Assembly (NCBI GenBank): GCA_036172245.1
Contig: JAYWIR010000005.1
Coordinates: forward strand, 4,960,001 to 5,024,000
DNA from: Raillietiella orientalis
Taxonomy: Eukaryota
DNA length: 64,000 nt
Direction of reading: 5' to 3'
Shown: one piece after another, positions 28,881 through 62,089 of the stretch
Numbering within the stretch: position 1 is the stretch's first letter
How the letters are laid out: each line of letters begins with the position of its first letter
Translations under genes and position numbers: made by a program
Notes under the pieces: generated by a model
The model's input: the letters and a program-made list of their open reading frames with translations, nothing else
The model's database searches: none
Told to the model about the DNA's origin: nothing

Positions 28881-31354
28881 GCTCAAAAATAAAATCGGGA
28901 AACGCTCATTTCCGATGGGGTCAATAAAGAACATTTTCTTTCAAACGGAAAAGCGTCGTGTAATGAAGGATCAGTTTTTTCATCCCGCCACGCCGAGGTG
29001 CTTCTTCCAGAACAGTCAACAAACAAATCGGGAACACAGGAAAAGCAACAAGAAAAACAAGTCAACGTGTCGGCTGCTGAAGGCTTGTATCTGGTGGTAA
29101 ATATCGCATGAAGAGATCGACGGCGGTTGAGTTCCTGCCTGCAGCTTGGCAACCAAGGCATTCCGTGTGTTATCAGGTTGTGACGCTTCCAAAGGAAGTG
29201 ATCGCGAAACGTGCTTGAGGAGCGCACAAGAGAAAGTAGACGAGATATATCATCACAAGAGCAGAATAGCAAAACCTGTGGTAAAGGAAGAGCACGTGCT
29301 TGGAGAACCCACTTTGCATTCACGACTGCTCCACATGTGACACATTTGATCTTCCTCCTGATTCTACCTGTTGTGCCCACAAGTCATCAACAAAGATGGA
29401 TTTGTTTGAAAAATCAGTCTTTGGCGAAATTATCAATCAATGGTCCTCCCACTCTAGACTTCATCCCCACTAGATGAATGCGGAGTCTTGTTTTCAGGAC
29501 GAGACTCTGAAAGCAAAAAGAATATTCTGAAGGGTATGATGCGCTGGGGCCCCAATTTCACAGCGGTTGATCTTCGATAAGATTATCAGACGTAACTCTG
29601 TTCCATAGCACTTTCTACCGAACATCCTCAATTTTGCCACGATCGAAACTTTTAGAAATTCCAAGGCTGTCAAGATTGTGAGATGATTGGATGAAATCTG
29701 CATGATTCCCCCCCCCTGAACAGAGTACGATAAGAACAATCTGTCTGGGTGTAGATTCCTTGCATCTTTCTGCGAAAGCCATTCCGGTCTAAGAAACAGA
29801 AAAACGAATACGTAGATGCAAGATGCAGATTGTGAGTCCTAAAATGGGTGAGCAGGGGATATAGTAAATCGGTTTCCAACCTCGCCTCAAGGAGATGAGT
29901 CTGGTTAGCGGAACCTGGTTTCGCATTGTAATTACAAATTAGGGAATTCTATCCGTTAATAACAAGTTTTTGCAGTTGCGGGAGATGAGCGTCTTTGCTA
30001 CTCACAGTTCATCCGAGGAATTCTGTTAGTGCCAAGGGTTTCCAGTCTTTGAGATTGCAGGAAGAAGTCGAAGGCAGTTTTCAAGAGTCCCACGCCAATG
30101 CACTTCAGGGTGTCTCATCATGGTCTCATCTCATCACGTTATCGGACTTTTGAGTGAACACCTTTCGTGATGGAACACAATGGCTCCAATGAATCATGCA
30201 AATCTCATCTAAAAGTGACAGCATTGCCAATTTCGAGGATTTCTAAAAGGAGAAACATCTTCAGCATTGGAGCGATAAGGAACAGAATTCATTCCATAGC
30301 GTGCGCGCAAGCTGCTGAGAAATCTTGCAAGAAACTCACTGCACCCGAAGCCTCCGAAGGGTAGATAAAGGCGGACATCAGGCAGAAGACAGTAACTTTC
30401 TATTCATAAGCATCTGTAAATTTTGTTTGGAATGATTCAAGGCACTATTTGGGCGAATGATGAAGGATACTGAAGTCACTAGAACGACTTCTTTCTTGGT
30501 GTTCAAAGATTTCGATTCCTCTCTTGTGCTCAAGACACTTTTTTTCTCAAGCACCTTTCCCCCCCTTCCTCTCTCCAGTCAGTTTGCGGAAGTGCCTGCA
30601 GTCAGGTATTGAATCGGAAGGAAAAAAACCGAAAACTGATCTTGCTTCAACAGTGTTCGAAAGTGACATCAGATTCTTTCCCCTTCCGTTTGCAGACTCC
30701 TAATGTCTCTTGCTCGCGGGACCGGTGTTCCAGCTCTGTTCGAGCGGCAGCAAGCATCGACAGATGCTCGTTCACTGCCACCATCCAAGGTGCCAAGGCA
30801 ACCACGAATCTGTTTTCAATAGCCCCCTGCATGGCGCTTCATGTTTTTTTCTGCTGCTGGGTTTGATCTCCACGTGTCTCTTAGATTGCAGTGAACGCTG
30901 AAGGGATTTGCACATGGCCCACTAGGTTTTCGGATTTCGTCCATGGACATATCGACTTTCTTGTTTCACAAGCTAATCAGTGATTGCATTTCGGACATTT
31001 TCCTCGATTTAGGAGCTGCGTCCGAATGATGTTGCCAAAAATATTCATTTCTGAGGTCTCGAGTCCCTCTGCATGCGTTCAACATCTACCCTCGATTTAT
31101 CAGCCAGCATAGACACAGTGATCTCAGACCAATGCGCCCCGTTTAGAAATGTGCGAACAGTGGCCCCCTGAAGTAATCGAAAACTGCAGTGGATATCTAA
31201 GTGCATGCTTGAGGGATTCATTTAATCCCACTGGTTGAATCTGTTTTATCTTCTTCATCAGATTTCTAACGAGCACTTTGATTTTTTCATGAATTGTAAA
31301 GATCCGTGCTAACACGAATTTCTGCCCGGATGCTTCCGATGTCTGTCATTTCAG

Positions 31355-31489
31355 ATTTTTGTTCGTGTTCGTCTGTTTAGTCCTTAGTGTTTTTTCTACA
31401 ATCGATGAATACGAGGAACTGGCAGGGATAATTCTTTTCTATATGGAACTTTTCGTCGTGTTTTGGTTCATTCTGGAATTCTGGATCAG
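31355..31489 (+). CDS. KCNQ: KCNQ coding exon B (S1-S2)
   Basis: Not in the ORF track. Read manually as FLFVFVCLVLSVFSTIDEYEELAGIILFYMELFVVFWFILEFWI(R). Acceptor catttcag, donor gtgagt; phase 2/2. Confidence 0.95.
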
Positions 31490-33653: not shown

Positions 33654-33693
33654 CTCATTGTTTTCATGCACTCGAGTGCATGAAAACAATGAG
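33654..33693. repeat. Perfect 40-bp spacerless palindrome
   Basis: ctcattgttttcatgcactc|gagtgcatgaaaacaatgag. Confidence 0.97.
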
Positions 33694-34322
33694 TTGTTTC
33701 TCATTGTTTTCTAGAGAACTTTCCGGAATAATTTTTTCTTCTCAACTTTGAGACCTTCGTGGAGACCAGAAGGACGGAAAGACTGGTCACTGAGAAAGTC
33801 CTCACAGTTGCTGGAATATTCAAAGGCCCCTGCCCACAAAACATCCTGAAACACACACAGCACGCACACGCGCACAAAAGAAAAAGGAAAAAAAATTCCA
33901 GTTTGAATCGCCAGTTCGAAGGGAGCATGGGACACCCTTGCGCGGGCACCATGCGAAGAGTGTCCTCAAGGCAATAAAAGGAAACATAGATATATCCGCA
34001 AGACCCCTTTGCACACTGCACGGATTGCCGTACATCGCCGCTGCAAATGAAGGCTAATCATGAGCTCAGGTCTCCGTAAATGAATCTCTTCCACGCTAAA
34101 GTCTTTTCGCGGGGAGCGGTAGAGCTATCGGTAACATTTCGCTACGTTTCTTTCTAGAAGTTGCCGTGGCTGGCAACCGTCCCTGGAGGAAATCAGGGGA
34201 TGAATGCGAAGAGAAATGTGAAATTCCATTTCAACCTAATTGCACTGAAGATTACTTGTGAGAAGAGCTTCCGGAAATTCCCTAAGGGAAAAATTTAATT
34301 CCAAAGTTGATTCTCTTCCTGC

Positions 34323-34336
34323 CTCTCTCTCTCTCT

Positions 34337-34369
<33 letters not shown>
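34323..34369. repeat. Compound (CT)n(CA)n microsatellite
   Basis: Direct reading of the sequence. Confidence 0.95.
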
Positions 34370-35214
34370 GAAAAAAGCAAAAACAGAAACAGGCTAAGGT
34401 GGTGAGGATGCTGGAGCGAGATCCGGTCTCTGATGGGTCACACAATCGTCGCGTGAACACCTGTTGGTAGACCCCCCACGACCCACCGGGCTGCGCGCGT
34501 GGTGGGTTGCGGAAGAGGCCTTCCTCGGAAGCGCAGTGGCAAGGAGACTGCCCCTCTCTCTGGATGTCGTCGTTCCTGAGGCCTTCCTGCGGCTGGGGAG
34601 AAAAAGAAAGTCACAGTGGACCCACAGGGGGCTGCTTCTGCAGCCCCCTGTCGGCGCAGTGCTGACTCTAGCCTTCGAAAGGAGGAGGGAAACCCGAGGG
34701 GTTTGGCGAACCCAAGGCGCAGCGGATGGATCTCGCAATCCCGTCACGGGTGTTGAAGAAAACTTTTCGGACTCGCCTCGGAGAGGTTGGGAATGTCTCA
34801 GCGGTTTCCTCATTGAAAAGAGTGTCCCGGACAGGAAGCTTCCTGTTGCGTCTAGGAGACGAGCTCACTAGTGATCTCCTCCTTCTTCCCCTTTAAGCAG
34901 GCCTTTCTCTCCACCCCTCGTCCCCAGCTTCACTTTTCCCTCTCCCAAATTCCTCCTCTCTACCCCCCCGGGGGGACCATCGGTGACCTATACTGGATTC
35001 TGCGCCTCTACATCTTCGTTTAATCTTTTCCCGGCGGTGCCAAGTGATGTTGACAGCCTCGGTCATGCACGAAAACCCGCGAGAGGAACCGTGCAGTAGT
35101 TCATCCTCCAGCCCATATTCCACTCCGGATCACCAAGTGACGACGCCTGCGGCCTTTCCTCGGAGTTCGATCGAGTGCGACTTCGTTTTGCCACCGCGGC
35201 GCTCCGGTGTCGGA

Positions 35215-35421
35215 GAAGCAGGGAGGGAAAAATTCCTGGGAGGGGAATAGAATACTCCGCGCCTAGAGTCCAAGGAAAGCCGCAGAGAGACAGAGCTTGG
35301 ATCTCCGTCGCCATGGCGGCGGAGTCAAGGAGTTTCCACGCGTTCTGTATCACGGACGGGGAGGAGCAGGAGTCGTCGGAAAAAGCACAGGAAAACCGGC
35401 AATGAGGGGTAACTGACGGAC
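35215..35421 (+). repeat. Left arm of an intronic inverted repeat (partner about 36376-36585)
   Basis: Core 35300-35372 versus reverse complement of 36424-36496: 64/73 identical, ungapped. Flanks align more loosely. Confidence 0.9.
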
Positions 35422-36375
35422 AGGGAGGGAAGGAAGGCGAAGGATGCGAGAAAGGATTGAACGGTGGAGCGAATCGACGCATCTTTGCTCCCCCGCGTTC
35501 ATCGACCCGTCTCTGACCTGCGTGTCCGTCCGCTCTTTTGGTTCCTGCCGGGATGAAGCGGGCGCGGCCTCCGCTCGCGAGCGCCGCTTTCAGGGTCTCC
35601 TCCATTTTCCCGGCTGAAATCCTTGGAGCTCTTCCGTTCCGTTCCAGGACACAGTAGCAGCGCGTTCCCGAGGAGCGCTCAGGACTCGGCGGTCCCTCCT
35701 GGTCCCATGTCACACGGCACGCCAGCCACGATGGCTCATTAATATTAACTATCGTTTCCAAGGGTTACTACTCCAACGGGAGGACCGTTTGGCACACAGA
35801 TGCCTCTTGCAGCGTCGAGAGAGCCACCCCAGAACCCTTGCGCGCCTCCTGGCGAGATGAGCCGGGCCAGCACTGGGGTCGGCCCTCCCCGTCTCGGCTC
35901 TGGACGCGGCCAAGGTTCGAGAATGCGCCTCCGGCGCATGGCCCTTGTCGCCCGCGCGGCTTCTCCGTCTCCTCCTCGAAGCGGAGGTTCTTCGATTTGG
36001 CCCTCCTTTCGCTCGTCCTCCTTGCCCCACCCTTCGGGCGTTCGCGGTCTTCGTATAGGGGAAGTGCTTCGTCGGTTCGGGCGGCTGGGCGGCGGTTCCC
36101 TCGACTGAGTGGAAGGGTGGCGTTCGCTGCATCCTGGAGCCTCGTCCGAGGGAATCCCCCACGATGAAAGCTCCTGGTTGCGGTCAGCTAGGCGCGCGTT
36201 GCTCCTTCCGCTGGTAGGGAGCTCCTCCAATCGGCTCCCGGATGTATTCTCCTTCTTCCGCTCCTTTCTCCTCCTCGCGTTTTCAGGATTTCCTGTCTTT
36301 GGAGGCTTTCCCTCTCGTACCGCATCCCGCTCAGGCAAGTCCTCCATCCCCGTCGCAGCGACCCACCGTCTCGGT

Positions 36376-36585
36376 TCCGTCAGTGCCCCCATTCTCGATT
36401 TCTCTGTGTGCCTTTCGCGGCAGCTCCTGCTCCTCCTCGTCCGCGACACGGAACGCGTGGAAATTCCCTGCCTCTGCCGCCATGGCGACGGAGGTCCGAG
36501 CTTCGTCTCCCCGCAACTTTCCGCTGACCCTGGGCGCCGGGCGCTTCTCTGTTCCGCCCGGGAACCTTTCCCTCCCTCCGCTTCC
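36376..36585 (-). repeat. Right arm of an intronic inverted repeat (partner about 35215-35421)
   Basis: Same alignment; visible as SVAMAAE..FHAF in ORFs 35175..35405(+) and 36331..36801(-). Confidence 0.9.
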
Positions 36586-36807
36586 CGGAAGCCGCCTTCC
36601 TCCCTTCCGGCTCCGCTCTACGGCACGCTCCCCCTTCCTCCTCGTGCATCCCTCCTCCTGTCGCGCCGCCCTCGTTCCCGAAACTTTCCTCATCCGCTGC
36701 CGCTCTGCTCCGAACGGGAGTGGGACCTCTGGCCGCGGGCGAGCGTGACAGTCCCGCTTCTCTCCGAGGGGGAACGCCCTTCCAGTAACGATGTGGTGCA
36801 CTTTCAG

Positions 36808-36890
36808 ATTGTGGTCCTCGGGCTGTCGTTCAAGATATCAGGGAGCCCTGGGTAGGCTGAAATTCATGAAACGCCCCTTTTGCATCTTAG
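36808..36890 (+). CDS. KCNQ: KCNQ coding exon C (S2-S3 linker)
   Basis: LWSSGCRSRYQGALGRLKFMKRPFCIL(D). Acceptor ctttcag, donor gtaaga; phase 2/1. Confidence 0.95.
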
Positions 36891-38359
36891 GTAAGACAAC
36901 AAGATTGCTATTATCTGGGCGCTCGGCCTCCCCCACCCCTTTTCCTCCCAAAGACCCCGCCGCCCTGTTCGGAGCCGCCTTGGTCTCCAGGAAATCCCCT
37001 TCCGGTGGCGATAGCAGCCATTTCCGCACCTGCGGCCGCGGGATCCGAAACGATCTGGCTAGGTGGAGGAAAAGGGGGCGGGGAGGAGGAGGAGGCGGAG
37101 GCTGTTCGAACGGTTCCTGAAGGGGAGGTCTTCTCCATCCTCCCCCTTCTTCTACCGCACCGCCCCACGTGCTGCTACTGCTGCTCTACCGACGCTCGAA
37201 GTGCGAACCTCAGGAGAAAGGCCCCTATTGCTGATGGGAGAGATCAATTCGAGAACCACCTCCGGCTTCGTAGTGTCTTCGCTGACCTTGCTCGAAAGGG
37301 AGAGGGAGGGACCTGGTCTCAGGAAGCTGAAGGCCGCGAAGGGAACACCTTGCCTGTCTACTCCCATCCGACCTCAGAGGGACGTGAGCATTCCGGGGCG
37401 TGTGGCGGCTGACTTCCGATTTCCCTTCGTTCCAGGCGATAACATGTCTTCTGGAGGCTGCTCGATCGTCTTCCTCCTCTTCTCTTCTTCTCTCCTTCTC
37501 TCCTTATCCCCCCTACCACCATAGGGATGTCCTTTTCAGGAAGAGTGACCGCATCCCTCGTGTTTGAAGGAGCGGGAGAAGGGTCGTCTCGGCATGCGCT
37601 CTCGATGCGGGGATCGCAGAACCGTCCGGAACGTTCCCCCTCCCCCTTTTCCTGTTTCATTCTCTGGATGACGACGCGGCGGAGCGAAAGTGGCCGACGC
37701 GCTGACGCTCCTCCCGTGTGCTTCTGTGCTCTGGACTTTGAAGGAGGCCGGCCGACAGGGACTCTGGCGCGAGAAACGTGCTAGAAAGGTCGCTCCACGT
37801 GGGTTGGCGCCATCTCCTAACCCTCTTCTCGCAACTCGATAGCTCCCTCCTTTCCCGATGCGCCCGTCAGCCAGATCGGAACCCCGCAATGAGCACCAGT
37901 CAATGTCCTCCTCCCCGTCTCTTCCCGCCCTTCAGAATCTCAAGACGTCTCTTGCGTCGTCTGCAAAGGAGCGTCCGGACGCCCTCATTGCTGGGTTCTT
38001 ACCCGATCCGACACGCGGGGCGCACATCGGTCGCGGGACGGAGGGCCTGCTGTCTCTTCCGCTTGCAGAACAGGGAGAGAGGTCTCCTAATTCTCCGGTC
38101 CACCCTGCATCTGTCGGCGACGAGGTCGATCTCCCTTTCCGGCTGAAGGTTGACCTTCAGACTGAAAATCCCCTTTCTTGGGGGCCCCAATTCTCTTCAT
38201 GAAACCGCTGCGATGCCTCCCTCTCTTCTTTCAGGTCCATCCCTAGCATCCTCCTCCCTTTCCCCGCGATCTTCTGTCTGCCGAGAATTCCGGGAACATC
38301 TTCCCGTGCTCTTTTCTCCCCCTTCCCCTCTCTTCCCTCCTGCAGCCTGCGTCACCTGC

Positions 38360-38485
38360 TCGAAGCTTCCGATAGGCCCAGTCGCCTTGCTGGCGATCCA
38401 TTTCCGGTGACTTGAGGGCACCTGGGCTTGCATCTTGACCGGCGCTGAAGGGCTCGCATAGACGACTTCCAAGTAGTTTCTCTCT
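38360..38485 (-). mobile_element. Degenerate LINE reverse-transcriptase C-terminal remnant
   Basis: NYL/GSRL ... AYRKLR with a one-base slip, resembling FxYLGSxx...AFxKL. Confidence 0.35.
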
Positions 38486-39054
38486 CTTCCCCTCTTCCTC
38501 TTTAACCCTTTCTGCTGCTGCTGCGTCTCTTTGCCTCTTCTCGATCACGTCTCTGTTCCCTCAGTCGGCTCGGCGCCCGTTCACGCTGTTTCCGTGGTTC
38601 TGCGTCTGCGCCGTCAAGCTGGTCGCGGTTACCTCCGAACAAGGTGAGGAGGCACTCGCTCAGCTTTTGCCTGGTCCAGCGACATCGGGGGAGGAGAGCT
38701 CCGGATAGCCCGCTCAAATCCTCTCGAGGAGGTCGACTTCCTTATCTCCGAAAACTCCGCGCTCGGCGATCGCCATCTTTTGACCACTCTCCTGATTCAC
38801 GGCCGCATCTTCTCGAGCGCAGAAGGCGACACTCGGCCGAATCATCCCTTCCTCCCCTTCCTCCGCATGCTGAAGCGACCAGCTGGACGCTGGCCCCCCA
38901 GAGCCGTCACTCGCGCTCGTTCATCCAATCGGGAAGCTCCGTTTCTTTTGACTCTCCAGCAAACAACTGGAGAGTGCTAATCCGCTCCTTGGAAGCCACG
39001 TGAGGTAGGGCACGAACTGATTTTGTTGTACGAGTCTCTCCCCTTCCCCTCCCC

Positions 39055-39210
39055 CAAATCTCCCCAGTTGCTGCCCCGAAGTCCGCAACCTCTGATCTGA
39101 GAACCATTTCCTTGTCTCTCACAATCCGTCGATTTCGACTCAGTCGCCTTTTATGACTGAACGATGCGTTGCCAGGTGAACGTCCGATGCGTGTCCTCAT
39201 TTGCATCTTA
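39055..39210 (-). mobile_element. Degenerate RTE-like LINE remnant
   Basis: MRTRIGRSPGNASFSHKRRLSRNRRIVRDKEMVLRSEV...GEIW, resembling EIxxRIGxA..AF...R.I...K....RS.V....YG.E.W. Confidence 0.4.
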
Positions 39211-42119
39211 TTGGACAACACGTCGGCAGCGATTCGCAGCAGGGATCACAGGGGCTTATGTCTGAGGGTAGCGCACTCCCTGGTCCTTTTGCTCATCCAC
39301 CCATTCTCCGCACGGAGCCCAGCGTCGCCGCCGGGAGCTGCGGGTTTCGCTTCGCATCCCGCGCACCTCCGAGTTGCCCATCTGCCGCGCCTTCCTCACT
39401 TCGAACCCAGAAGGATATCTGCTGGGAGACGCGGCGAACTGCACCCTGCTTGCAGGATCAGCGCGTCCAGTCTTGTCGGAGGCGCACGGGGACGCTCCGT
39501 GGGCATCGGCGGGAACAGGCTGGAGTCAAATGCCCGCCAGCCGCTTTCCACTGCTGACACTCTGCCGGTTGAGTGCGCTGGAGTAGCGAGTGGGTCACTT
39601 CAAAGGGACTTTTCGAAAGGCGGAGGAACGCTGGCGATCCTGTGGGTTCCCTCGTGTCCGCCGGAGCTTTCCTTGCAGAAGCCGTCTGAGGTGGTCACGA
39701 AAAGGGAAAGCAGCACCTGGCCTCGTTCTTGGGAGACTCCGTGAGGAAAAATGCTGACTGGCCCGCCCTCGCCATCTTGCTCTCGGGAAAACAGACGCCA
39801 TCGATAATAACTTGTCGGGATGCCAGAAACTACGACCCTTCGGGAGAGCTGGAAATGTCAAGAATGGTGCGTGTCCACCAGCCAGCACGCGCGCGGGACA
39901 TCTGCTGGACTTGCTGCCTGGTGCTCCCTCTAAAAGAGACCAGGCGCAGACCTTGCAGTCCGGATCACCAGGAGACCACTGGACCGCAAGCTCGCCCTAC
40001 GTCTGAAATCAGGGAAGCAGGCTGGCGAATTCAGTCTCCGAAAAGGGAAGGGAGGTTCGGGTGTCCGAGCACAAGAGGCCGACTTGCTCTCTTAGTTCCA
40101 TCTCACGCTCCAGTCCCGACCGCGTGTGGGCCGGCAGGAGGAAGCGTCCAGACCTCACCGGGCAAGTGACTGGTACCTGCACGAAGCGGCTCCGAATCTT
40201 TTCCAACTTCTCCCCCCCTCTTCCTCCTCCTTCCATTCTTCGTGAATATAGGAGCACGCGAGACCCTCCCTCAGCCCGCGCCGTGTTTCGACCGGCACAT
40301 CGGCCGACTTGGAACCTTCCCTCCCTGAAGTCTCCTGAACCGAGAAACTCTTTTGATGAAAAGGAGAAGAGCAGAAGGACAATCGATACAGAAATTAAGT
40401 AGAGGAGAGGTCATTTGGGGCGAATGAACGAGACCGATTGGTCCCCCGAACAATGCTGAGGATCAGGAAAGATAATGCGGCACCATCCCATGGAGGGATG
40501 GCAATTCCAGAGCGGGCTCTCTGTCCTCTAGCGAGGCGGCGATTAGGTTTGAGGAAGAGAATTTTCGATGAGAGGAGAGTGCCAAGGACCATTCCAGAAA
40601 AAAGTCGAGACGCAAGTGCTCCGCAGCAGCAGCAGCCTTCATCCGGAAATCGAAAATTCTCTAAAGAAGCTTCGTTTCGAACCCCGATTTTTTTCTGCCG
40701 GGGCTGGATGGATCGGCAAGCCGGATGGGATGAAAAGTTGAGGGAGAGAGGAAGAGGCAGGGACGCGCACCCGCCGCGTTTCCTGAATGAAAAAAAAAAG
40801 AAAAAAATCGATGAAAGAGGAACTCAGGTGCTTTCAGGCGATAAGACAATGGGGGAATCGAGGGAGGTCATCTCGACGTGAGTTGCCATCCGGAAGCCGT
40901 TGATACTACTAGTCGAGGTGAACTCATCTTCGCCAGGTCGTTGGTAAAGCAGCCCCGCGGACCGATTCTATGCGGGGGTGGTGCTCTACGCCCATATCGA
41001 GATCGGTTCACGTTCCGTCGAGTGGAGCCACCTGGCTGAAAGTGAAAATCGAAATTTGCCGAGTCTTTCCGGTTCCCCCCCCCCCTCTTCCTTGAGTTCC
41101 TAAGAGTTATCGGGATGATATCTGATACACGCGATGACGTTTCGAACCTTCTCCTCTCGAATCGTTCCTTCCACGAGAGTGGAATACGACTGTGCTGCGA
41201 GGAGGTGATCCAATGTGACAACTTCCGAACATCCCTCCTCCTATGTGAATTCTTGAAACCCAAGCTGCATTTCTTCCTCATCGGTTGAAACTAATCGAAG
41301 CTTAATGAGGACGAAGGACGGCAATTCGTATTTTCTCCCCCCCATCTTCCCATCCGGCAAGAAAAAAAAAAAAAAATAGTGCGACGGGCTGGAAACGTCG
41401 CCTGCGATAATTTGTACAGTAAAATTCAGGACTCTCAAGTCATTCCCGGAACTTACTCCTGACTATGTGAGTCCTAAAGCTCCGTCCTGAGATCCAAGAG
41501 ATTCATCCAATTTGAGTCGTTTTAATTTGTTTTTTTTTTTCCCGCTTATTTGATCGAGAACATTATCTGTTCCCGATTCCCACACGAATTCTTTATGTTC
41601 CTCGGTGAAGAACTTCAGCATGAGGATCTCCAAGATTTCCTGATTATTAAGTAGGATGATTTCCCTGAGATGATGATGATGATGATATTATTCAATACTC
41701 CCGAGCTGAGGATGGGAGTTCTTAACGCACTGGCAGAATTTGTAAAGACCTGGTCAATGTCCTTTTCTATGGACCCAGTAGGTATCACGGCTATATTGGA
41801 TGCTGTGAGCGGTCATCGGTATGTCTGCAGGATCTCCCGTTCTCTCACCTTCTCTCCATTTTGGATCCTAGAGAGTCAAATACTAGGTATCCAGTGGTCA
41901 CCAGAAAGTCCCCTGTTGATAGGGAGACCGGGGGGTCTTTGCATGTGGTCTGACTTATTTCTTGAGCACTTCCGAACCCGCATTCATGCTCTCGAGGCGG
42001 TAGTCAACGTCTTCTCTCCTTGCGCGGTACCAAACTTTCATGGAGACGAGAATTCACTCCGGAAGTGACCTTGCCACATGAAACCAATTCCCAGCTCCTT
42101 TCAATTGTCGTCTTCAATC

Positions 42120-42330
42120 AGTGAAGTAGTGAACCGTGTCGCTCAAAGTACCGGAGAGGGCGCCATAAACAGCAGTTTGGCATTTGAGGCGACGTCTAAT
42201 CTTAAACTCGACATCATTTGCACCTGCGATCCTGTTTCTGGTGTACAATCCCTCCGGTAGGGAAGGCATAGATGAAAATCGGATGTATTCCTCTCCCGAA
42301 TGGGGACCTTGACTCCAGTTCCTATGCAAC
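42120..42330 (-). mobile_element. Degenerate LINE remnant
   Basis: YTRNRIAGANDVEFKIRRRLKCQTAVYGAL, resembling YLGSxIxxxNDxxxEIRRRxxxAxxAFGxL. Confidence 0.45.
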
Positions 42331-42596
42331 CCAGAGCACGGCCCGTCTTTTCTCTGGTTTTTCTGATCTTCTGTATCTGACGGCGCTGAAGGTCACGAAC
42401 TCTTGACGCAAGCCTCCTCCTCTCGGTCGAATCGGCCGTGTTGCTGCCAGAGGCAGTCGGTGGCTCTCCAACTTTAAATGTTTGGTTTGTTACCCATGCA
42501 CCCGTGGCGCTTGTCTGTCCAAATTTCTTAGTTCCCTGCCGTTTCTTTGAGACTGAATACTTAGAATATCGTATGCAGTAGAATCATCCATTGGAT

Positions 42597-42800
42597 TCTT
42601 ACCTGGGACATCTTGGAAGAACCGAGGGAAGACCTGTGCAGTCGAGTGTCCAGACAACGGCGAGACCTTGCAGCCGTGCAACGGCAGTCTCAAGCTGGAG
42701 CTCCTGGCAGGGAGGCGAAAACTCCAGGCCTGCAGGAGATGTTCGCGAGCGTGACAGAAAAAGGGAGGCAACTCTTGCAAGAGTGGGTGCACCACGGGAG
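42597..42800 (+). mobile_element. Possible degenerate RTE-like LINE 3' remnant
   Basis: YLGHLGRTEGRP motif (compare YLGHxxR). Little else is recognisable. Confidence 0.3.
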
Positions 42801-45232
42801 TTCGAACTTCAACGGTGCAGACGTCCCTTGCCCCTTCACTCGCCGAGAACCGCGCCCAACCCTTCGCCCGCAACGGCGAAGCCAGGCAACTCGAGAAAGC
42901 TGTGGAAGCTGCGAGAAAAAGTCTCGCCCGCACATTTCTCGATGCGTTTCCGAGTTCCTGAAGTCTTCCTTCCTCCTGAAACCTCCATTGGTAGCGCACA
43001 CCAGTCAAAGGCTGATGTGTTGATTCCGGCCGCGAGATTTTACTGATCTCTTTTCCTTCCGTTCTGATGGCCGTCTGGGGCTCGTGGACACTTCGGAACA
43101 TCCGGTCTGATTCTTGCAAGGGGCGCATCCCCTTTTCTGATTCTCCTGATAGCTGGGCTGCAATCAAGATCACGATCCGCTTCCGACACTGAAAACAGCT
43201 GGGCACAGAAGTGCTTGGGGCTAGTCAGCTGACTCGCGTTTTTCCTCTTTAATGAGCGTGCCCCGGTCAAGGAAATTCTCCTCTCGTAGGCGAACATATA
43301 GATGGAAGAAAGGATAGAGCATAAAGGTCAAGGCTATCCCTTTGACCTCTAAATCCAGTGAGTGCGAAGGCAGACTCTTAAGCAGACTGTTTGCTTAGAG
43401 ACTGAGGATCCTCGAGCTTTTTTGAGATCCTGTCGGCAGCTGAAACGGAGAGATGCAAATTTCTGTTGTCACGGAAATGGCGTGTGCCTACCGAAGTGAG
43501 AAGAAGGATGAATTTTTCAGCAGCAAAAAAGATGGTGGAGTGAGAGAGCAGAAATGAGCCTGTCTTCCACGAAACGAAATAGAATTTCAAGAATGAATAA
43601 ATAAATAAATGAAAAGGAGCCGAGAAAAGTCTCGAAAACGAGATATTTGAGCGACTAGATGTCAGAAATCCCCACGAACAGGAAAGACGCAGCTTTATGA
43701 AGATGTGAGTATTCGTGGTCATGGAAACGTACAGATTTCGATGGGACTACGAGGTAGTAACGCTGGTCTATCGGACGAAGACGAAGAGGATGATGAAAGC
43801 ATTCCCCCCCTCATTCCCAAAACCTTTCAGTGCTCCTACTATTTTTAACAATAGGTTTGTCGTTAGTGGGACGCATTTGCCAAAGTCGGAGCGGATGCCC
43901 TACGGAAAAAGCAGCTTCTCGTGTTAGCGCTCCCCGTGCAAAACGAAATCCTTAAATGGAACGAAGCAAAACGCAACGGAAAGAAGAACCCTGCCACCCC
44001 CTTCACGAAGAAAATGCTCGTAGGACAAAGTAGCGCTCCTCAACGTGTGCGAAATCCACGAGGAATCTTGGAACTTTTCATCACACTCAAGCTGGAGGAG
44101 GTTCCCATGCCTGCCACTTGACCTTGTTGTGAGAAAGAGAAAACGCTGAGCCCAGAGAGCTAAGTTCTTCCGAAAGCCAAAGCCACTCCTGGACATTTCT
44201 GGCGGTCGCTCGTTTCGAAAACAGATGTAGGAGCAGCAAAAGACATCCACCGGAGGAACTAAGGGATACACCTGCTGATGAAAGCACCATGTTGAATCAT
44301 CCCAAGTGGGCATCCAAACACAAAGCTTCAGCCAAACAAAAGATTTCTGCTCTCTGCCTGCTGCATGGCCGAGGGCAGGCGAAGAGCGAATCAGATACAA
44401 TTTTCGAGCTGGTTTGCCCTCTGCCCTCTCTTTCGGCTTGGCAGAGTCGATGGCCCGATCTGTTGGTGAAAGTTTGAAGCGAAGAAAGTCTCATGCGTTC
44501 TTTTGGACTCGAGGAACGGAGCTTTTCTCGATGATATTTTCAGTTGCATCGAGAAATTAGAGAGAAGGAACCGAGCAATGCATCTTGCCGTCTGGTGATT
44601 CCTAGAGAAATTGCCCATTCCCCATTTTTCTCTGCCTGCCTCCATGGTTCCGCCATCCCGCATTCCTCCCTCCCCCTCTTCCGCCCTCGCTTCGGAAAAC
44701 AGGGATTATGAACCCACTTTACGAATTTCGATCCAGAAAATCGAGGAAGCCAGCATGATTAAGTTTCTGCAAATGCCACTGCCATTGAGGGTTCATCATC
44801 CAAAGTATTCTTAAATGATTCCTGGGACGCAGAGAAATTTGATGCCTATTAACACTTTAGAAACCCATCAAGTGGCATCGAGTTAAAGAACAAAGCCCTT
44901 TGGGAAGTCATAAGGTTGTCGGTAGCAACCGTTTCATCACCATCTTGCTAGGACGAGGGCTGCTTTCGAATAGTGGCTGATTCCCCATCGTCGTCGCAAA
45001 GTTGGGTATTGCTTTCCGTTTGAAAAATCTTCCGGATACACTTGTATACCCCCGTTGATCTTGAGTCTCACTGATTAATGAGTTCTGCCGATGAAATTCC
45101 ATTTTTGAGTATCCATTCAACTCAAAACCACTTTTCCTCCGAAAGGAGAACGTTGTGAATCGCAGTCTGTTGAACGTGTTTCTGAAGAAGAACCCCTACG
45201 AGTGACGATGACGTCGCGTTACCCTCTGTCTA

Positions 45233-45301
45233 GCAATTCTTGAAACCTCGTTTTTTGCCTTACCAGCAGTGAGTAGAAAAAGCAATTGTATCATTCTGCC
45301 C
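45233..45301 (+). repeat. 69-bp duplicate of the KCNQ exon F 3' end plus donor site (source 48498-48566), flanked by a 12-bp direct repeat
   Basis: 66/69 identical to 48498-48566. ccctctgtctag occurs at 45222-45233 and 45299-45310. Confidence 0.95.
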
Positions 45302-46669
45302 TCTGTCTAGGGCTGATTTCGAGACGGCTTCGTTAAAACTTCCTTCTTTGTGGATTGTCTTTTATTTTTTGGTTCCTCTGCCTAGGATGCATTGGATCTT
45401 GAAGTTCCACTTGAGTTCATAGCAGGCCAAGTTTCGGCATGGACTTTGCCACTTGAGAGTTGGAAATTCATTTTGGTTTGCACTTGCTGCACGTTTTCAA
45501 TTGCATTGGGCATTTCGGTTGAACCAGTGCTTAACGTTGCTTTTCTTCATTACAAGAACAGGAGACAACACAGTGCTTTTGTGTGCTAGCCTGATAGGAA
45601 GCTCTCTCCAACTTCTTATCGAGCTGCACCTTGCTCTGCACTCCTCAGAAGTGTGCAAAGCTCTCTGTCTGACGCAACCGAACGCGGAAGTCGGCTCCCG
45701 GATAGCTACCATTCTTCAGCTAATCCTTTCCGATAGAAAGAAAAAGGTTAGCTTATTCCCTCATTTCTGCAACAGTGCTGTGTAAATAAACTTTTGATTA
45801 TGCACCCACTGAGTAGAACTCTTCCTGAACAGCAGTGTCGTCTCCCGAAAGGAGGGAGCATGTCTTTCCGGGCTGTGGGTACCGATATTTCCTATGAGCG
45901 ACCGCCGCTTTTCTATCACAAATTTTCATCATTCCATTTTGCCGTGGAGGGTAGGCGCAAAGGCACAGAAGTGCCAGCGTCTCCCCACCATCATCCTCTA
46001 AAGCCGAAGCTTAAACTTGTTTCATCAAGAAGCGCTACGCTGCTCAAGCGAGAACCCGATAAATTGTAGGATGACAAATTGATACATTCTGTTGGTACAC
46101 TCCATTCATTATGTAAAGCAAACTGTCAAATGAATTCAGTGGAGTGTACAGTGGATTTCCTAACGAAAACGGATGCCTTTCTCTCAAACGGCAGGAGTGC
46201 TTTAGGCAAGGCCTATGTTTATTATCTGAAAATCACCAAAAGCAGCTTCCATGTTCCGCATTCATCGCTGGCGTTTCGATTTGTAAGAGAGAGAACCGCT
46301 GTAGCTTTTCGGGTTGCAGCAGCAAACAAGACAATATTTCATCTTCTCTTTTCCTCTGAAACAACGACAACCAAAAAAACAAACAAACAAACAGAAAAGA
46401 TAGCTCTGAAAATAATTTAATTTCATTGGAAATCTCCAGTCTGTTTTTCTCAGAGGGTAGTAAATGAATACTGAAGCACCCAAAATGAGTCTGAGGTGCA
46501 AAAAAAAAAAAAAACATTACCAGCCGTGGGGCATGAATGCAGCCCTCATTAATTTCAAGTGCTCATCTTGAGCGAGAAGCCTAAGAGATGCTCGCATCAG
46601 CTAGACGCGTTGTCTGATGTAACCAAGCGAGGGGATGGAATGAGTGAAGTTTATAGAGACCAGAGAATC

Positions 46670-46945
46670 GTGGATCTCTGATACCAGTCGGATTCTTCCG
46701 CGCTCCCTACTGTTAGAAAATGGCCGGCAACATTTCCTCCCGTGACCATTCAAGAGCTGTGCTGATCTTCGTCTTAGAGACGGCATTAAAGTAAGGATGG
46801 CAGGATGCCTGCCATCTTGTCATAAGTTCATTGCCGGGACCCCTCTGATATGAGCAAGAAGAATTTATTGCCACTCGTTCGCTAAATTGCAGGACTGACA
46901 GGCAGCTCTTTTTGTCGGTTGCGATGGGTAATACCAAGAGAAATC
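46670..46945 (-). mobile_element. Possible degenerate RTE-like LINE 3' remnant
   Basis: LGITHRNRQK ... LEWSRE ... RERGR in order across frameshifts (compare LGITLRDRxRN...LEWxPR...RxRGRP). Confidence 0.35.
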
Positions 46946-47153
46946 TGTTGATTCTTCCGGCCAGAAAGTCCCCGATAAGAAGACAAATCCGGAAGCTTCC
47001 AACGTGAGCGCGAATTCCGTAGGTTTTCGGAAGTGTGTGTGGGGGGGAGGGGGGATCTCCCTCCCTCCCGGAGATGAGTGTCGTTTGTATTCATTGCCAA
47101 ATTCACCATTCGATCTAGAGAGGCATCCTTTATCCCCTCTTCCCCTCTCTCAG

Positions 47154-47329
47154 ACATGGTCATCATCGTCGCTTCTCTGGTCGTTCTGGCCTTGGGATCG
47201 GGAGAACCCATGTTTGCTGCATCAGCACTGAGAGGCCTGAGGTTTTTTCAAATTTTGCGAATGGTGAGAATGGACAGAAGAGGAGGAACGTGGAAGCTGT
47301 TGGGATCGGTCGTGTACGCTCACAGACAG
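47154..47329 (+). CDS. KCNQ: KCNQ coding exon D (S3-S4, S4-S5 linker)
   Basis: (D)[58 protein letters not shown]. Long pyrimidine tract plus cag acceptor, donor gtgagg; phase 1/0. Confidence 0.97.
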
Positions 47330-47504
47330 GTGAGGCTCTCTTGCGGGTCAGCTTCCCCCTCCTTCCAGCTACGCTTTCCGCTCCCACGAGCGGGAAGGTT
47401 GCCTCCCACCACGCATCCACGCAGCCCGCACGCTCGGTTTGCGGATCTGCTCTTCCTCTGGCTCGCGTCCCGTGTCTCGGCTGCAAAGAGCCCCTATTTT
47501 TCAG

Positions 47505-47633
47505 GAACTCATAACCACGCTGTACATCGGATTCCTGGGACTCATCTTTTCGTCTTTCCTGGTGTTTCTTGCAGAGAAGGATTCCAACCCCGAGTCATTC
47601 TCCAACTTCGCCGATGCGCTGTGGTGGGGAATT
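47505..47633 (+). CDS. KCNQ: KCNQ coding exon E (S5, turret, pore helix)
   Basis: [43 protein letters not shown]. Acceptor tttttcag, donor gtaagt; phase 0/0. Confidence 0.97.
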
Positions 47634-48422
47634 GTAAGTTCGCCTCTCCTAATGCATCTCTGCTCGGCAGCTAACTTTACAAGGGGCCGTGTCGAAGGAA
47701 AAACTTTGATCGTTGGCTATCTGATGATGGAAGCGTTGCCGAGAGAAATTTTCCATTCGGAAACGCATCCAAGTAACAGATATAGATTGTCGTGACTAGT
47801 CCTCCTTTTCTGGTGTGTTCGTTGGATTTTGCCTTTCCCGCTTCTCGCGGCTGGACCCTCGCTTCATTGCCTCCCTGTGCTCAAATCGCTGACGGCACGA
47901 TCGTGGCATCTTTAACTGACACTTCTTAATTTCGTCACATTTTCTCCCTCCCCTTTTGAGAGCTTCCATGGTGCACGGTGGCGGGTGCCGTCCCATCATG
48001 CTGGCCGCTAACGGCGAATCCCCGGTGAGGACATTGAGAGTGTACGGTCTGTACGTTCGAAACGCATTTTATGCTTGTCGAAACGAACAAATGAATGAAA
48101 TAGATTTCCGATCAGCTCATGTACGAGTGGTCGTTACCCGTCGGTTGATGCGGGACGCAACGTTTATTGAAGCGGGGGATTCCATGCCGGCTCATAAGTA
48201 AGGACGCTCTCACTTCCTTGTGCACCCGGAAGCAGCACCTAACACCGTGGAAGTCCATCCTTTGATTCTTTGAATTTTCGTTGGGAATTTCGCCGTTCGA
48301 AAGACGGCAACGAGGAGATCGCCGCTTGATCCGCCCGTAGAAGCGAGCATGAATTAAGGGAATCAGATCTATTGCGTTCTCTCTTGAGAAAATGGTCCTT
48401 AACGAATTAAGTTTCCTTTCAG

Positions 48423-48533
48423 ATAACTCTGTGCACTGTCGGTTACGGAGACACCGTGCCCAAGACGTGGCCAGGAAAATTGATCGCATCTGGCTGTGCA
48501 ATTCTTGGAATCTCGTTTTTTGCCTTACCAGCA
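48423..48533 (+). CDS. KCNQ: KCNQ coding exon F (selectivity filter, S6)
   Basis: [37 protein letters not shown]. Acceptor tttcctttcag, donor gtgagt; phase 0/0. Confidence 0.97.
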
Positions 48534-51500
48534 GTGAGTAGAAAAAGCAATTGCATCATTCTGCCCAACTGTGCATCCCATTTATCTCCTGCGGCTCTAT
48601 TGAACAAGATCCCTTTTTCGTGTTACGGTGGTCCACCTATGCTAGGGTTCCACCCGTTCGCGGTCGATCCCGTCAGAGACTATCACGGTGAGGAGAAGGA
48701 ATTTTGGCTTCCGCTCTGTGGCTGCGAGTCGATCAAGGACCAAGTCGATTCATTAGGAAAACCCAGATGGCATCCGATTTATATCTAACACATTAGGCAG
48801 CATTCTCTACGTCCACTCGAGAAAAATTCCATACCAACGTATTTCGGGGGAAACGCAGTAGCCGAACATTGCCTAAGCAACTGGTGCAGCTACACGCAAT
48901 GGCTCCATCCGTTTCTCGCTCGCTCATTATTTTTTCTCTTCTTCCTACCACTAGTCGCAAACAATTTCGGCCCAGAGGTTGAAACGAGAATGTTTTGTCG
49001 ATTTCGTTTCCTAATGTAATTCGAAGGATCATCCATAGCCAGACTAGGGCTTTCTGGAGATAGCTAGCTCGGTTCTGCTTCATTGATTGACTAATCTTTC
49101 AAGTGAAACTCTAATCATGCACTAACCAACCCTTCTGCGAGTTCTTCACAGCTATCGACTTTGAGAAAAACTGAAACCTAAAAGGTCACAAAATTCTTAT
49201 CTGTAACTTTCTGAATCAATTAGCTTTAATTTGGAAGGAAAGGGATGCTTATCATTTCAAGTTGTCAAGTTCACCAACAGCCTATTTGACTGGAATTCCT
49301 CAAAATTCAGCATCTTTCCGTCAAGAACCTGAGATGCTTTGCGATCCATACTACGTTAGATAACTACGTGATCGTTTCACCAGATGACAACTCAAGAAGA
49401 ATGAAAAACGAGATAAGGCATCTCGAACATCAAGCCTGCAGACTTGGTGTCCATTCTCAAGAAATTCCAATGACAAACTCACATGGAGGGATCATATGCG
49501 TATCTAAAGGAAGAATCACGTAAAGGGGATATGGTCAAGCATATCAGCTCAAGCTAAACCTTGCTAAACCTTCATTTCTGTTCCTACGACCACGCTTTAT
49601 CATAAGAATTATCATCTTCCCTCCAAATCCATCCGATTTGATGACGTAAACTCGCGTAAATCTTAAACTTCAGTTACGCAATCAGCTCCCTATAAACCCA
49701 TATTCTAAGCTGAACCTCAATCTTCCTTGGAGGTAATAAATGCAGTGGCAAAGATGTGGAACGTCATGAAGGCTACAGCCTTTCCATTGCAGTACTTCTG
49801 CAGTTCATGCTGCTCAGAGGATCTTGGAATCCGCAAGCGCCTTCGATCAATCTTCTTTTCTAATTCAGTTGAATACGAATTCCACAATTAATAAGCTGGA
49901 TTTATGCAGGGACTTACTGCAAACCAGAAATCGCTAAGCCATCTCTCAAAGAGAGGGAAACCTTAGTATTCTGTGGAGAAAAAATTCCCAGCACTTGTTC
50001 CCAAAAAGGCCCTTAAGGGATTTCTAAAAGCAAACATAATGGGTGTGAATTAAAGAAAACGACGAACATGGGACGAGAAGCTCTTGCACTGATGACTTGC
50101 TTAAGATGATTTCTCTAGCAACGACAGTATAGTATCTGGTTCGCTGCAAAATCCGTGTGGCAACGCCTTCAAAACCAATCACTTTTCACACACACACACA
50201 CACACTGCTGCCGAATCCCTTTTTTTATGGATTTGCACCAGGGATCGGCACCAAGGAATTTCTATCTATCTCGTTATGGATGATTTTCATTCCACAGTCG
50301 AGAACTGAGAGGCAATCCCTTTCCACTTCTCTAACTTTAGCATGTCGGATGCACTCGGAAAGTTTGGATGGAATTTAAAAAGAATCAAAATGCATTGAAC
50401 AAAGCAATATGATAGACAATTTGTTCCAAGATATCTAATTATCTGTTTCAGAACAGGAGCATTCAGGAATTCAATCAAGCGATCGATTCTAGGAACCGAA
50501 TCGTGCGGTGGCAATCTCAAGAGTGTCAGAACTGTAGTCGAACCATCTTCCATTAAAAGCTTCGATCCCTTTAAAGTTAGAGGACATTTGTGATTTCTTA
50601 TTCTGAGACTGATGGGATTGTGAAAATTCCTGAAAGATCCTGCATTCATCTCTTTGAGCAGCCAAAGCAAACAAAGCTCCATACTTTTCTAATTTTTTTT
50701 AGGCTGTGCAATATAGAAGCATCTTCAAAGTATGCTTGGAATTCCAGGCAACACATATTTTTTTTTTTTTTTTTTCTTACTTGGATTACAAAATAACGAG
50801 CTGCATCCAGGAACAAATGGATTCCTTCGAGTAGAGCCACTGCAACATGTATAGAAATCAAAATGATGCTGCATCATTTGTGCTATAATTGTAGCTCGCG
50901 CTGTCTTCATGCTGTTCCCTTCTAAGCTCAAGCGGAGAAGAACTCGAGTTTCCGGAGTCGTATCTATCCGAAGCAAGTCTCGAATCAATAATGCAGCATC
51001 CACCCTTCCTGCTGTAGTAACAAATCTGCGTTTCAGTTCTCGTGTAACATCGAGTGGGAGAGAATTCAAATGAATTTTGACCTCACCGTGTTCAGTTTTC
51101 CTTCTTCTCATCAACTACCAGATCCACACTCCAAGGGACACCTTGATAATTTGAAAGGCCATCAGCGCATCGATATGCGAAACGCACTTGAAGAGCTCTC
51201 GCTTGAAAACCTAGATATAAGGGACTATACGGAATTACAACAGGAACTTGGTCAGCTGTTCTGTTTAGACTCTCTCCCGGGAACTTTTGGGATCGAAGAT
51301 TTCATTTCAAGACTTTATCTTCCGATGATTCCGCGACCTTTCTTTTTCTGAATTTTCTTTCATTCCTCCATCACTTCTTACAGACGTTTCTAATATGGAT
51401 ACTACATTCACGATGCTATAAGGATATGCAAAGGTGCATGGCATGATCTTGCATGCAGGTGTTTCTGATCTTCCACAAGTTTCATCACAACTGATATCCT

Positions 51501-51634
51501 TGAATCCAACACTAAATTTTACACATTTCCCTTGCTCTTGAAATATAAAGTTGCCAAAATCTGCGCTTCACAAGATGGCCATTGCGTCACTGGCATGTTC
51601 CAAACCATTTTTGGCACTGTGATGCCTTATTTAG

Positions 51635-51819
51635 GGTATTCTGGGATCTGGCTTTGCCCTTAAAGTCCAACAGCAGCAGAGACAAAAGCACATGATCCGT
51701 AGAAGACAACCTGCTGCCACTCTAATCCAGTGCCTCTGGCGTTGCTACGCTTCTGACGAACATTCCATGAGCATCGCTACTTGGAAGATTCATCAAACGC
51801 CTCTTCCGAGTCCTCCAGT
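51635..51819 (+). CDS. KCNQ: KCNQ coding exon G (distal S6, helix A / calmodulin-binding IQ-like motif)
   Basis: Not in the ORF track. [61 protein letters not shown]. Acceptor ttatttag, donor gtaagt; phase 0/2. Confidence 0.96.
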
Positions 51820-54800
51820 GTAAGTACCTTCGTATTCCTTCCAGTTGCGGAAACCCGCGCGGTAGATGACTGCAATGTCGTGTGTGAAAGTAAGAGATGC
51901 TTTTGGGAAGCGCATGTCTCTCGGTTTACCGGGCAGAAAAAGGAAAGGTATCAGCGTTTACCACTGCCTGCTTCGGGAAGGGCATCGGAATCTTGCGAGA
52001 TGAGGACTTCGTACCAAGCGAATCTGTGACTCTATGAAGTGCCATTCCTTATTCCCGTTTGTTGCGTGCGCTGCCTTCTGTCCCGAAAACTCGTTTTCCT
52101 CACGAAAATCGCTGAGACGCCGAGTCGTTTCCATTCTTTGCTTCCTGTGCGGAGATGACACCACTCGAGTGAGATCAAAGCAGAGCTTCCCTAATTCTTC
52201 ATTCCTCCTTGTCTTTTCACAGGTGTGATCGTTTCGTGTCAACATTGGGAATGGATTTTTCTACTTCCCTTTCCGAAGAAGTATACATCTTGTATTGTGG
52301 TGCTGTAGAAACAGCGCGGAAACAACCAGTTTGCGCCCTTGGTGCTTTTTCATTCTGGAGGCAGCATGCTCTTGAGATCTCTAGGGTATTTTCATAGGCG
52401 TTTTGTCGATTTCTTAGTACGCTGTCAGAGCCTGAAAAACGAAAGGAATGCTGCATATACGGGATTTTTCAAGTCCTTTCTACTTAGCCTGGAAAAAAAT
52501 TCCGTCCTTGGTATTCCGAAGAATTCTTCTTCTGTACTTCCGCTGCTGTGCTTCCAAAACAAGATGTTTTGGAAACGCAAGGCGGACTGACGGATTCCGT
52601 CAATCTCAAGCATAAAACAGCACAGATTGCGGAAGGGCGCCGGTTTGCTGCTTTCGAGATCAGACCGTCTCGATTTGTTGAAAGGGAAATTCTTCTGTCA
52701 AAGGTGACGACTGAGGATACGAAAACAGCATGCCCAATCGAAAATAGAATCCGAGATAACTAAGAATAGCAAACACCCGCGGAGAAATCATTGCATTTCG
52801 CATTTCATGGTGCTGCTTTGCGTTTGGTGCTCCCAGACACAGCCACGGGAAGAGGGAAGAATTTCCCCACCTGATTCTTCCAGTATTCCAAACGTGCTGG
52901 TTAGTGTCCAATTATTTGTTCGGCTGAGTTTAGTGGCTCCGCTCTTTTCCGAGTACGTTCCACATAAGTCCAAAGCGTTGGAAAACGAAAAGCAATGCGC
53001 AAGTACGGAGCAGCGTTCCTTCCTGGAAAATCCTGGAAGAACGCATAGGGTTAGCAGCCAGTCATTTGTTCTTACGATCAAAAAATTATGAATAGAGGGA
53101 GTTTGAATCCGTGAAAGACTGTTGAATTCGGGACGTGGCTGTTGTCGCCAATCCAGCAAATCAGCTTGAAGAGATTCCAGCATGAGCCGAAAGCACTGGA
53201 CCATTGAACGAGGAAGAAAAATACCGAAAGTCAGTGAAAGTTGAAATTATAGGGCTAGCAAGAGTCACCTCTCTTTTTCTTGTCGTTGCCTGCAAAGCAT
53301 TAAGGTGTGCAGATGCTTTTGTGTTTTTTTGATCACGACGAGTCGGAAAATGGCTGTCAGACTGGGAACCTCATTCTGGGAACCACAGGCGTGGAGTCTG
53401 TCCACGGCTGGGAATCCGAAAACTTCACTGTATCGAGGAAGAAAAATTCTCCCAACACTTAAATGGGGTAAAAATGAGAAATGGCATGATGACGTGCTTT
53501 ACATTTCTCATTAAATGTTCCCCCTTTATTGAAGAGAAAAGCGTGCTTAGTTCATGATGGACTTCAAAAAAATAAGTCCAAGATTGATTCGCTCAAGATC
53601 TTGTTCATCCACCATATATTTCTCCTCTCCCTTTGATAAGCCGAAGGAGTTGAGTGTTCGTTTTCCTTATTGAATCCAGCAGCTTCTCTCTTTGCTCGGA
53701 AATTTTACCGTACCATGAATTCTCGTTCCATGGTAACCTGTTCTCTCCTCAGTTTCATCTTTCTCCGTGTTTTGCGCAGTTCTGTCGGCTGCATTTTTCG
53801 TGATTTCTGCCTGCGTTGCAAATCCGGCGCAGATTTCGAGATGCAAGTACCTTTCTGAGTGCATCGACGAAAACGTCATTTGCCGCGCTGCTGCTGCACC
53901 AACAAGCAGCTAACGCAGCCGATTTCTAACGCGTTGGCGCTGCTATTGAAAACCAACTTTCCCGCATTGGGGAGCCAAATGTGCCGCCAGGAACGAGGAG
54001 CAAAGTCTCATTCCTTCGCTTCCTCAAAAATGAGTTTTCGAAAAGTCCGCTATCGGACTGCCTGGTTCCATGAGCACTCCTGTGGATAAATGGGCTTCCA
54101 TCCTGCCCCTCCCGGGGCGAACGTGTCCACGGAAACTCCCGGGCACCGACCCAGCCGGCTTCCCTGGTGACCCCGACCCCTGAGCGGTCGGGCGACCTTT
54201 CATGGATCGGTTTCCAATGAGATAAATCCACTTTTCACAACTCCATGGGCGTTGTGCAGTCCTGAATTAGGAAAAAGGCACCGGATCAAAATAATTCTTC
54301 CCTTTTTCTTCGTTTGCGGTGTTTTATTCGAAGCACTCGCCCCAGGTAACTTCCATCTTATGGAGCACGCCCTTCTGTTAGAAAACAAGCTGCTAAGGGA
54401 AAAGTAGGAATGTCAGTGATCTCCGACATCACAGATTCATTATCCCTCAGCCGACTCCTCTGTGGCAACATTATTTGAAGTCTTTGGAATCAGTTCAACT
54501 TGCACAGAAACTTGAAATTTCCTTCTTGTGGAAAACAGAATAAAATCAGCAGTGGTTTCGAGGAACCAAACGACATGGAAATTTCGGGAGGATTACCTTG
54601 CCGAAGGCTCTGAAGGCTCTTCAGAGAACCTTCTTCTCGACCTGAAATTCTTTTGCTCTGTTTTCTGAAGTGGTGATAGATAGATGGATTTGCTGCATCA
54701 GGAAAACTGATAATTCAGAAACTACATGGACGATATGAATTTCATATAAGCCATTTTGCATCCTTAGATGCATAAAGATGTCTCGTAGAGATGCCTTGAA

Positions 54801-62017: not shown

Positions 62018-62089
62018 CCTGCGTTGATTGGCTGCGCTCACGCCCGGCGCTTGCCACCCTTCCCCCTTCCCCCTGCGTTGATTGGCTGC
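62018..62089 (-). promoter_or_regulatory. Duplicated 18-bp CCAAT-box-containing motif
   Basis: cctgcgttgattggctgc at 62018-62035 and 62072-62089 (GCAGCCAATCAA on the minus strand). The repeat is certain; regulatory function is not. Confidence 0.4.

Follow-up and report, generated by a model that had tools for sequence, protein, structure and literature searches.

The 64,000-nt stretch of Raillietiella orientalis DNA analyzed here (contig JAYWIR010000005.1, positions 4,960,001 to 5,024,000 of the forward strand; "the window" below) carries a gene that we identify by homology as a KCNQ (Kv7) channel gene. Within the intron between exons C and D of this gene lies a short second copy of the end of exon F, which encodes the selectivity filter and S6, with the beginning of the following intron attached. 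The copy is flanked by direct repeats and, together with one of them, outlines a predicted cassette exon of 35 nt. An original prediction, made from the sequence of the window, had pointed to this arrangement; we followed it up computationally, and its claims are taken up where our results bear on them.

To place the exons of the host gene on the + strand, we used tblastn with five homologues (P0001, P0013, P0011, P0097, and P0005). These were drawn from the 120 listed matches of a protein search with exon E, which returned 2,765 matches; the best identity among the 120 listed was 91%, to spiders. Exon A was placed at approximately 26554-26685, exon B at 31356-31489, and exon C, which encodes the S2-S3 linker and ends in phase 1 (G/GTAAGA), at 36808-36890. 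Exon D (47154-47329, 176 nt) encodes the S3-S4 voltage sensor, exon E (47505-47633, 129 nt, phase 0 to phase 0) encodes S5, and exon F (48423-48533, 111 nt, donor GCA/GTGAGT) encodes the GYGD selectivity filter and S6. Exon G (51635-51796, with an approximate 3' end) carries the GILGSG gate and the proximal C-terminus, and exon H extends from 58355 to approximately 58567.

Exons D to G were 83-93% identical to a spider KCNQ (P0013). Compared with solved chains, exon F matched KCNQ1-5 best, with E values down to 2.8e-11; the exon covers the GYGD filter and continues through S6 up to SFFALPA. Pfam placed Ion_trans_2 on exon F (1.9e-9) and, more weakly, Ion_trans on exons D and E. Judged by its S3-S6 region, its GYGD filter, its SFFALPA-GILGSG gate, and its best matches, the host is a KCNQ (Kv7) channel gene.

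Two further observations concern the exons and their homologues. At 94 nt upstream of the homology-inferred start of exon B (31356) there is an AG that has a good pyrimidine tract and is paired with the exon B donor, outlining the interval 31262-31489; it may be an alternative acceptor or reflect a longer exon B. In the rotifer KCNQ model P0001, residues 102-145 and 146-189 both align to exon E (59% and 78%, respectively), and the model therefore contains two S5 exons in tandem, which represent either an alternative exon pair that the gene predictor read through or a true duplication.

A repeat finder run on the window aligned positions 45233-45301 with 48498-48566, without gaps and with 66 of 69 positions identical. 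Self-BLAST of the window returned the same pair (E = 1.3e-24) as the sole direct short duplicate among five non-self pairs. The three differences are all transitions (copy/source: 45243 A/G, 45246 C/T, and 45289 T/C). The source, on the + strand, consists of the last 36 nt of exon F, from S6 to the gate-hinge Pro-Ala, and the first 33 nt of intron F, with the donor GCA/GTGAGT included. Relative to this source, the copy is located 3,265 bp upstream, in the same gene and the same orientation, inside the 10.2-kb intron C-D. Because it includes intron sequence, spliced mRNA is ruled out as the template, which leaves DNA or unspliced pre-mRNA.

The borders of the copy could be read base by base. 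On either side of it, on the + strand, stands the 12-bp sequence CCCTCTGTCTAG. The left repeat (45222-45233), which has the form of a target-site duplication, ends in a G that is the first base in common with the source, while the right repeat (45299-45310) begins with CCC, the end of the source. The junction microhomology is 1 nt on the left (G, 45233) and 3 nt on the right (CCC, 45299-45301). Between the repeats are 65 nt of unambiguously new sequence (45234-45298, + strand), templated from 48499-48563; the match reaches 45233-45301 when the microhomologies are counted. The net gain at the target is 77 bp, made up of these 65 nt and the 12 that were copied again.

The repeat occurs exactly twice in the window, at the positions given above, and its chance expectation there is about 0.26 matches even when one mismatch is permitted. 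Identity between copy and source ends sharply at both borders, and the next 15 bases on either side are unrelated. We also aligned the 200-nt flanks of the copy with those of the source. On the left, the observed alignment score was reached by 187 of 300 shuffles. On the right it was reached by 33 of 300, and by 28 of 300 when the flank was begun after the second repeat.

The claims of the original prediction on these points were borne out: that 45233-45301 is a 69-nt duplicate of the end of the S6 exon and 33 nt of its intron, that it was made from DNA or pre-mRNA and not from mRNA (the exon-intron boundary lies inside the copy), and that it sits between 12-bp direct repeats with 1-3 nt of microhomology. 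We also considered a decayed ancient exon duplication and rejected it, as the flanks of copy and source bear no relation to each other and two thirds of the exon are missing; a copy of 35 of the 111 nt of the exon is not an exon duplication.

We examined the splice signals of intron C-D by a crude count of pyrimidines and motifs, not with a trained splice-site model. The left repeat supplies a candidate acceptor, as had been predicted; it has 10 pyrimidines in 12 positions followed by TAG, and candidate TGAC branch points lie 23 and 29 nt upstream of it. The same count over the 12 positions before the real acceptors gave 8 for exon C, 12 for D, 11 for E, 9 for F, and 8 for G. The donor of the cassette, GTGAGT at 45269-45274, is identical to the constitutive donor of exon F, and the 33 nt of intron downstream of it were copied too. 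Between acceptor and donor lies the candidate 35-nt pseudoexon (45234-45268, + strand), which is a prediction only.

Intron C-D contains five GTRAGT sites and 19 acceptors of the quality of the cassette's. Only two acceptor-donor pairs in the intron are 20-300 nt apart: the cassette and a second pseudoexon candidate at 43290-43357 on the + strand (68 nt, acceptor with at least 10 pyrimidines of 12, GTRAGT donor). Folding of the RNA from 45180 to 45340 indicated no structure of note (z = -0.45), and an Rfam search (E up to 1) and a tRNA scan of 36000-52000 returned nothing. A recursive-splicing ratchet site was considered separately and rejected on reading the sequence, since the junction of exon C with the cassette would not rebuild a 5' splice site. 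No invertebrate KCNQ poison exon was reported among the literature matches listed, in so far as their excerpts extend.

To determine the reading frames, exons were joined by coordinates with a script. Placed after exon C (phase 1), the cassette reads AILETSFFALPA and ends in phase 0. When the cassette is joined on to exon D, that exon is read out of frame and TGA is met inside it, at 47229-47231. When exon C and the cassette are joined to exon E, F, or G, the frame stays open, while joining exon C directly to E, F, or G without the cassette causes a frameshift in every case. The lengths of the cassette and of exon D, 35 and 176 nt, both leave a remainder of 2 when divided by 3. C-cassette-E and C-D-E are therefore both open, and C-cassette-D-E and C-E are both frameshifted. 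The original prediction had given the exon borders and phases of C, D, E, F, and G, the reading of the cassette in the frame of S6 with its end in phase 0, the stop at 47229-47231, and the open frames to E, F, and G. The borders and phases agreed with tblastn and exon joining, and the remaining points with exon joining.

The peptide that the cassette would encode differs from that of exon F. The exonic part of the copy has two residue changes, Gly to Glu and Ile to Thr. The relatives all keep GISFFALPA where the copy reads ETSFFALPA, which puts both changes on the side of the copy. Glu and Thr thus stand in place of a Gly and an Ile that are invariant in relatives, so that nothing points to constraint on the cassette peptide. 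The words AILET, ILETS, LETSF, and ETSFF occurred in none of the 120 listed homologues of the exon E search, none of which is from this species.

We consider it likely that the copy arose in the germline as a templated insertion of a known kind, that it is neutral, and that it formed a plausible 35-nt poison pseudoexon by chance; we infer that this pseudoexon is not regularly spliced. In such an event, a 3' DNA end at ...CCCTCTGTCTAG in intron C-D would prime by a single nucleotide (G, 48498) on the boundary of exon F and intron F. Synthesis on this boundary, 3,265 bp downstream, would copy about 68 nt, to ...CTGCCC. By a replicative switch, the event would begin with a nascent strand ending in ...CTAG leaving its template, and the new end would later re-anneal via CCC at the original locus, 12 nt behind the point of departure. 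By polymerase-theta end joining, it would begin with a break that has 12-nt complementary 3' overhangs, one of which would prime on the distant template. The ...CCC would then pair with the terminal GGG of the other overhang, and fill-in would duplicate 12 bp. The 12 bp would be written twice because re-annealing takes place 12 nt behind the departure point or, equivalently, at the tip of the 12-nt overhang. The product would be a neutral intronic scar that unites a decent acceptor and a genuine donor by accident. Were the pseudoexon to be included ahead of exon D, translation would meet a stop codon within exon D.

The structure fits microhomology-primed template switching, within which polymerase-theta end joining and break-induced replication mediated by microhomology (MMBIR) or fork stalling and template switching (FoSTeS) would be inseparable by sequence. 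The original prediction had likened the junctions to templated insertions made by polymerase theta. The anatomy of a microhomology insertion stood, but an assignment to polymerase theta specifically would exceed what the sequence supports, as an MMBIR/FoSTeS switch that returns 12 nt behind its departure point would give an identical product and the template lies 3,265 bp off.

Several points weigh against a neutral templated insertion as proposed here. By the crude count, the pseudoexon looks good, with an acceptor that beats those of exons C, F, and G, and because of this apparent quality low-level splicing of the cassette is conceivable. Neutrality is a deduction and not a measured property. 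Typical polymerase-theta scars delete bases, whereas here 12 bp of target were gained. Finally, the template is 3,265 bp away, which is beyond the approximately 100 bp or the close proximity to the break that the available excerpts give for the systems of PMC8421209 and PMC4490562.

One alternative is that RNA and not DNA was the template. A fragment of unspliced KCNQ pre-mRNA could have been reverse-transcribed into a staggered nick, either by target-primed insertion of the long interspersed element (LINE) type or by RNA-templated break repair, in which case the 12-bp repeat would count as a target-site duplication of the classical sort. LINE-mediated insertions carry a target-site duplication, and the exact 12-bp repeat would be one, with a length within the usual LINE-mediated range. 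The insert is in sense orientation in the same transcription unit, pre-mRNA would be present at the locus, and the intron sequence in the insert is as in pre-mRNA. However, inspection of the sequence found no poly(A) tract and no tail of a LINE or short interspersed element (SINE) at either end of the insert. Nor did Pfam find a reverse transcriptase or any other family in the 13 long open reading frames (ORFs) of the window that were scanned, five of them in intron C-D, and so there was no sign of a nested gene or a transposon protein. This route would also need a channel gene of neurons or muscle to be transcribed in the germline, and the microhomologies at both ends are explained equally by DNA templating. 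We regard it as unlikely.

A second alternative concerns the use of the copy and not its origin. The cassette could be a working exon: a regulated poison exon that lowers KCNQ output via nonsense-mediated decay, or an exon that is beginning to form a mutually exclusive pair with exon D, with a subunit without S3-S4 as the alternative product. Its acceptor (10 of 12 pyrimidines, TAG, and TGAC candidates at -23 and -29), a donor with 33 nt of intron from a constitutive exon, and the TGA reached when it is included before exon D would all suit such a role, and so would the frame class shared with exon D, by which only one of the two can be included if the frame is to stay open from exon C into exon E. 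Against this, the cassette measures 35 nt and is flanked by introns of 8.3 and 1.9 kb, an arrangement poorly suited to exon definition. The changes of Gly to Glu and Ile to Thr fall at invariant positions of S6, with no constraint on the peptide, and the words of the cassette were absent from the 120 listed homologues, which do not include this species. The in-frame state has a 1 in 3 chance of arising by coincidence, and a second pseudoexon of like crude quality (43290-43357) exists in the same intron. Selection would also be expected to purge a poison exon that was strongly included in an essential channel gene. We give the working cassette little credence, and it is very unlikely that the insertion made an exon that is in use, with its frames as the mark of a mutually exclusive pair that nonsense-mediated decay enforces.

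The locus might instead be the footprint of an excised DNA transposon, with the 12-bp repeats as the old target-site duplication and the 65 nt as filler from repair of the excision break. A duplication of 12 bp is longer than in most cut-and-paste families, no residue of a transposon end is present between the repeats, and two events would be needed where one suffices. Templated filler flanked by direct repeats is what this explanation would produce, and, according to the excerpted account in PMC4490562, the C. elegans germline repairs the breaks left by transposon excision with templated inserts. Even so, we find it highly improbable.

An artefact of assembly or library construction (a chimeric read or a mis-polished region) is barely credible. 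In its favor, the one DNA run found, whose low-depth contigs match exactly at 43475-43652, 44695-44868, and 50214-50444, leaves 45078-45611 without a contig. Against it, a chimeric read would be exact and would lack a target duplication, whereas the copy has 3 differences in 69 positions and its 12-bp duplication is clean, with microhomology at the junctions. Scans of metagenomes for a 24-nt piece of the left flank and for a 27-nt piece common to copy and source each gave no matches.

If the copy is a natural templated insertion, as we think likely, it is a textbook-clean one, in which the donor site, the target duplication, and each of the two microhomologies are legible at single-base resolution. 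If it is also spliced, break repair would have transplanted a working splice donor into an intron and, in a single step, given an ion-channel gene a poison or alternative exon. The result could be a poison transcript that lowers dosage, or a KCNQ subunit without S3-S4 that keeps the pore and the C-terminal assembly domain. Use of the exon would make the locus an example in which break repair used the gene's own splice donor to seed a regulatory exon.

The window has other features of composition and repeat content. Four blocks (4001-8000, 20001-24000, 34001-40000, and 60001-64000) have a G+C content of 54-63%, against a background of 42-50%, and long ORFs in these blocks had no Pfam match. One such block takes in exon C and the initial 3 kb of intron C-D. 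Just upstream of exon C, in a G+C-rich block, is an inverted repeat of 211 nt (35215-35420 and 36376-36584; 75% identity, E = 1.4e-30). Another inverted repeat, of 126 nt, lies in a different G+C-rich block (4798-4918 and 7778-7897; 79% identity). Self-BLAST also returned a perfect 40-nt palindrome at 33654-33693, which is 100% identical to its own reverse complement.

The candidate cassette may be compared with several known ways in which exons arise or are used. Like a tandem exon duplication or one of a set of mutually exclusive exons, it is a second copy of exon sequence in a neighboring intron, and it has the frame class of exon D. A tandem duplication, however, would double a whole exon with both of its splice sites. 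What was copied here is the last 35 of the 111 bases of the exon, the acceptor being left out, and similarity is absent upstream of 45233. Exon D, the frame partner here, is not homologous to the copy.

Poison exons of ion-channel genes, such as that of SCN1A, offer another parallel, in that an intronic cassette brings about a premature stop upstream of several exon junctions. Known poison exons of this kind are conserved and have been seen in RNA. The KCNQ candidate differs from them in being only 35 nt long. In Alu exonisation, an inserted sequence becomes an exon, and as in that process the KCNQ insertion brings or completes splice signals within an intron. The KCNQ donor, in contrast, is no chance match but a copy of the gene's own constitutive donor, and the inserted DNA is not a mobile element.

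As for the insertion itself, no templated insertion with a target-site duplication of this kind appeared among the literature matches listed, as far as their excerpted text goes. The excerpts of two studies describe relatives of it. Heritable repair by polymerase theta in C. elegans proceeds from single-nucleotide homology and leaves templated inserts that are taken from close proximity to the break (PMC4490562). The KCNQ copy resembles the inserts in that excerpt in coming from the same chromosome in direct orientation, in its priming by 1-3 nt, and in being a heritable scar. It differs from them in that its template is 3,265 bp off, in the gain of 12 bp of target instead of a small loss, and in the length of the insert (65-69 nt).

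Templated insertions of the MMBIR type (MMB-TIs), as excerpted from PMC8421209, are flanked by microhomology, involve a switch back to the initial template, and are retained as germline variants. In the yeast MMB-TIs of that excerpt the template is within 100 bp, while the KCNQ insertion would have required a single switch of 3.3 kb and is accompanied by no larger rearrangement. The likeness lies in the microhomology-flanked insertion itself, and in the same excerpt MMB-TIs are said to persist in the germline when they do not disrupt genes.

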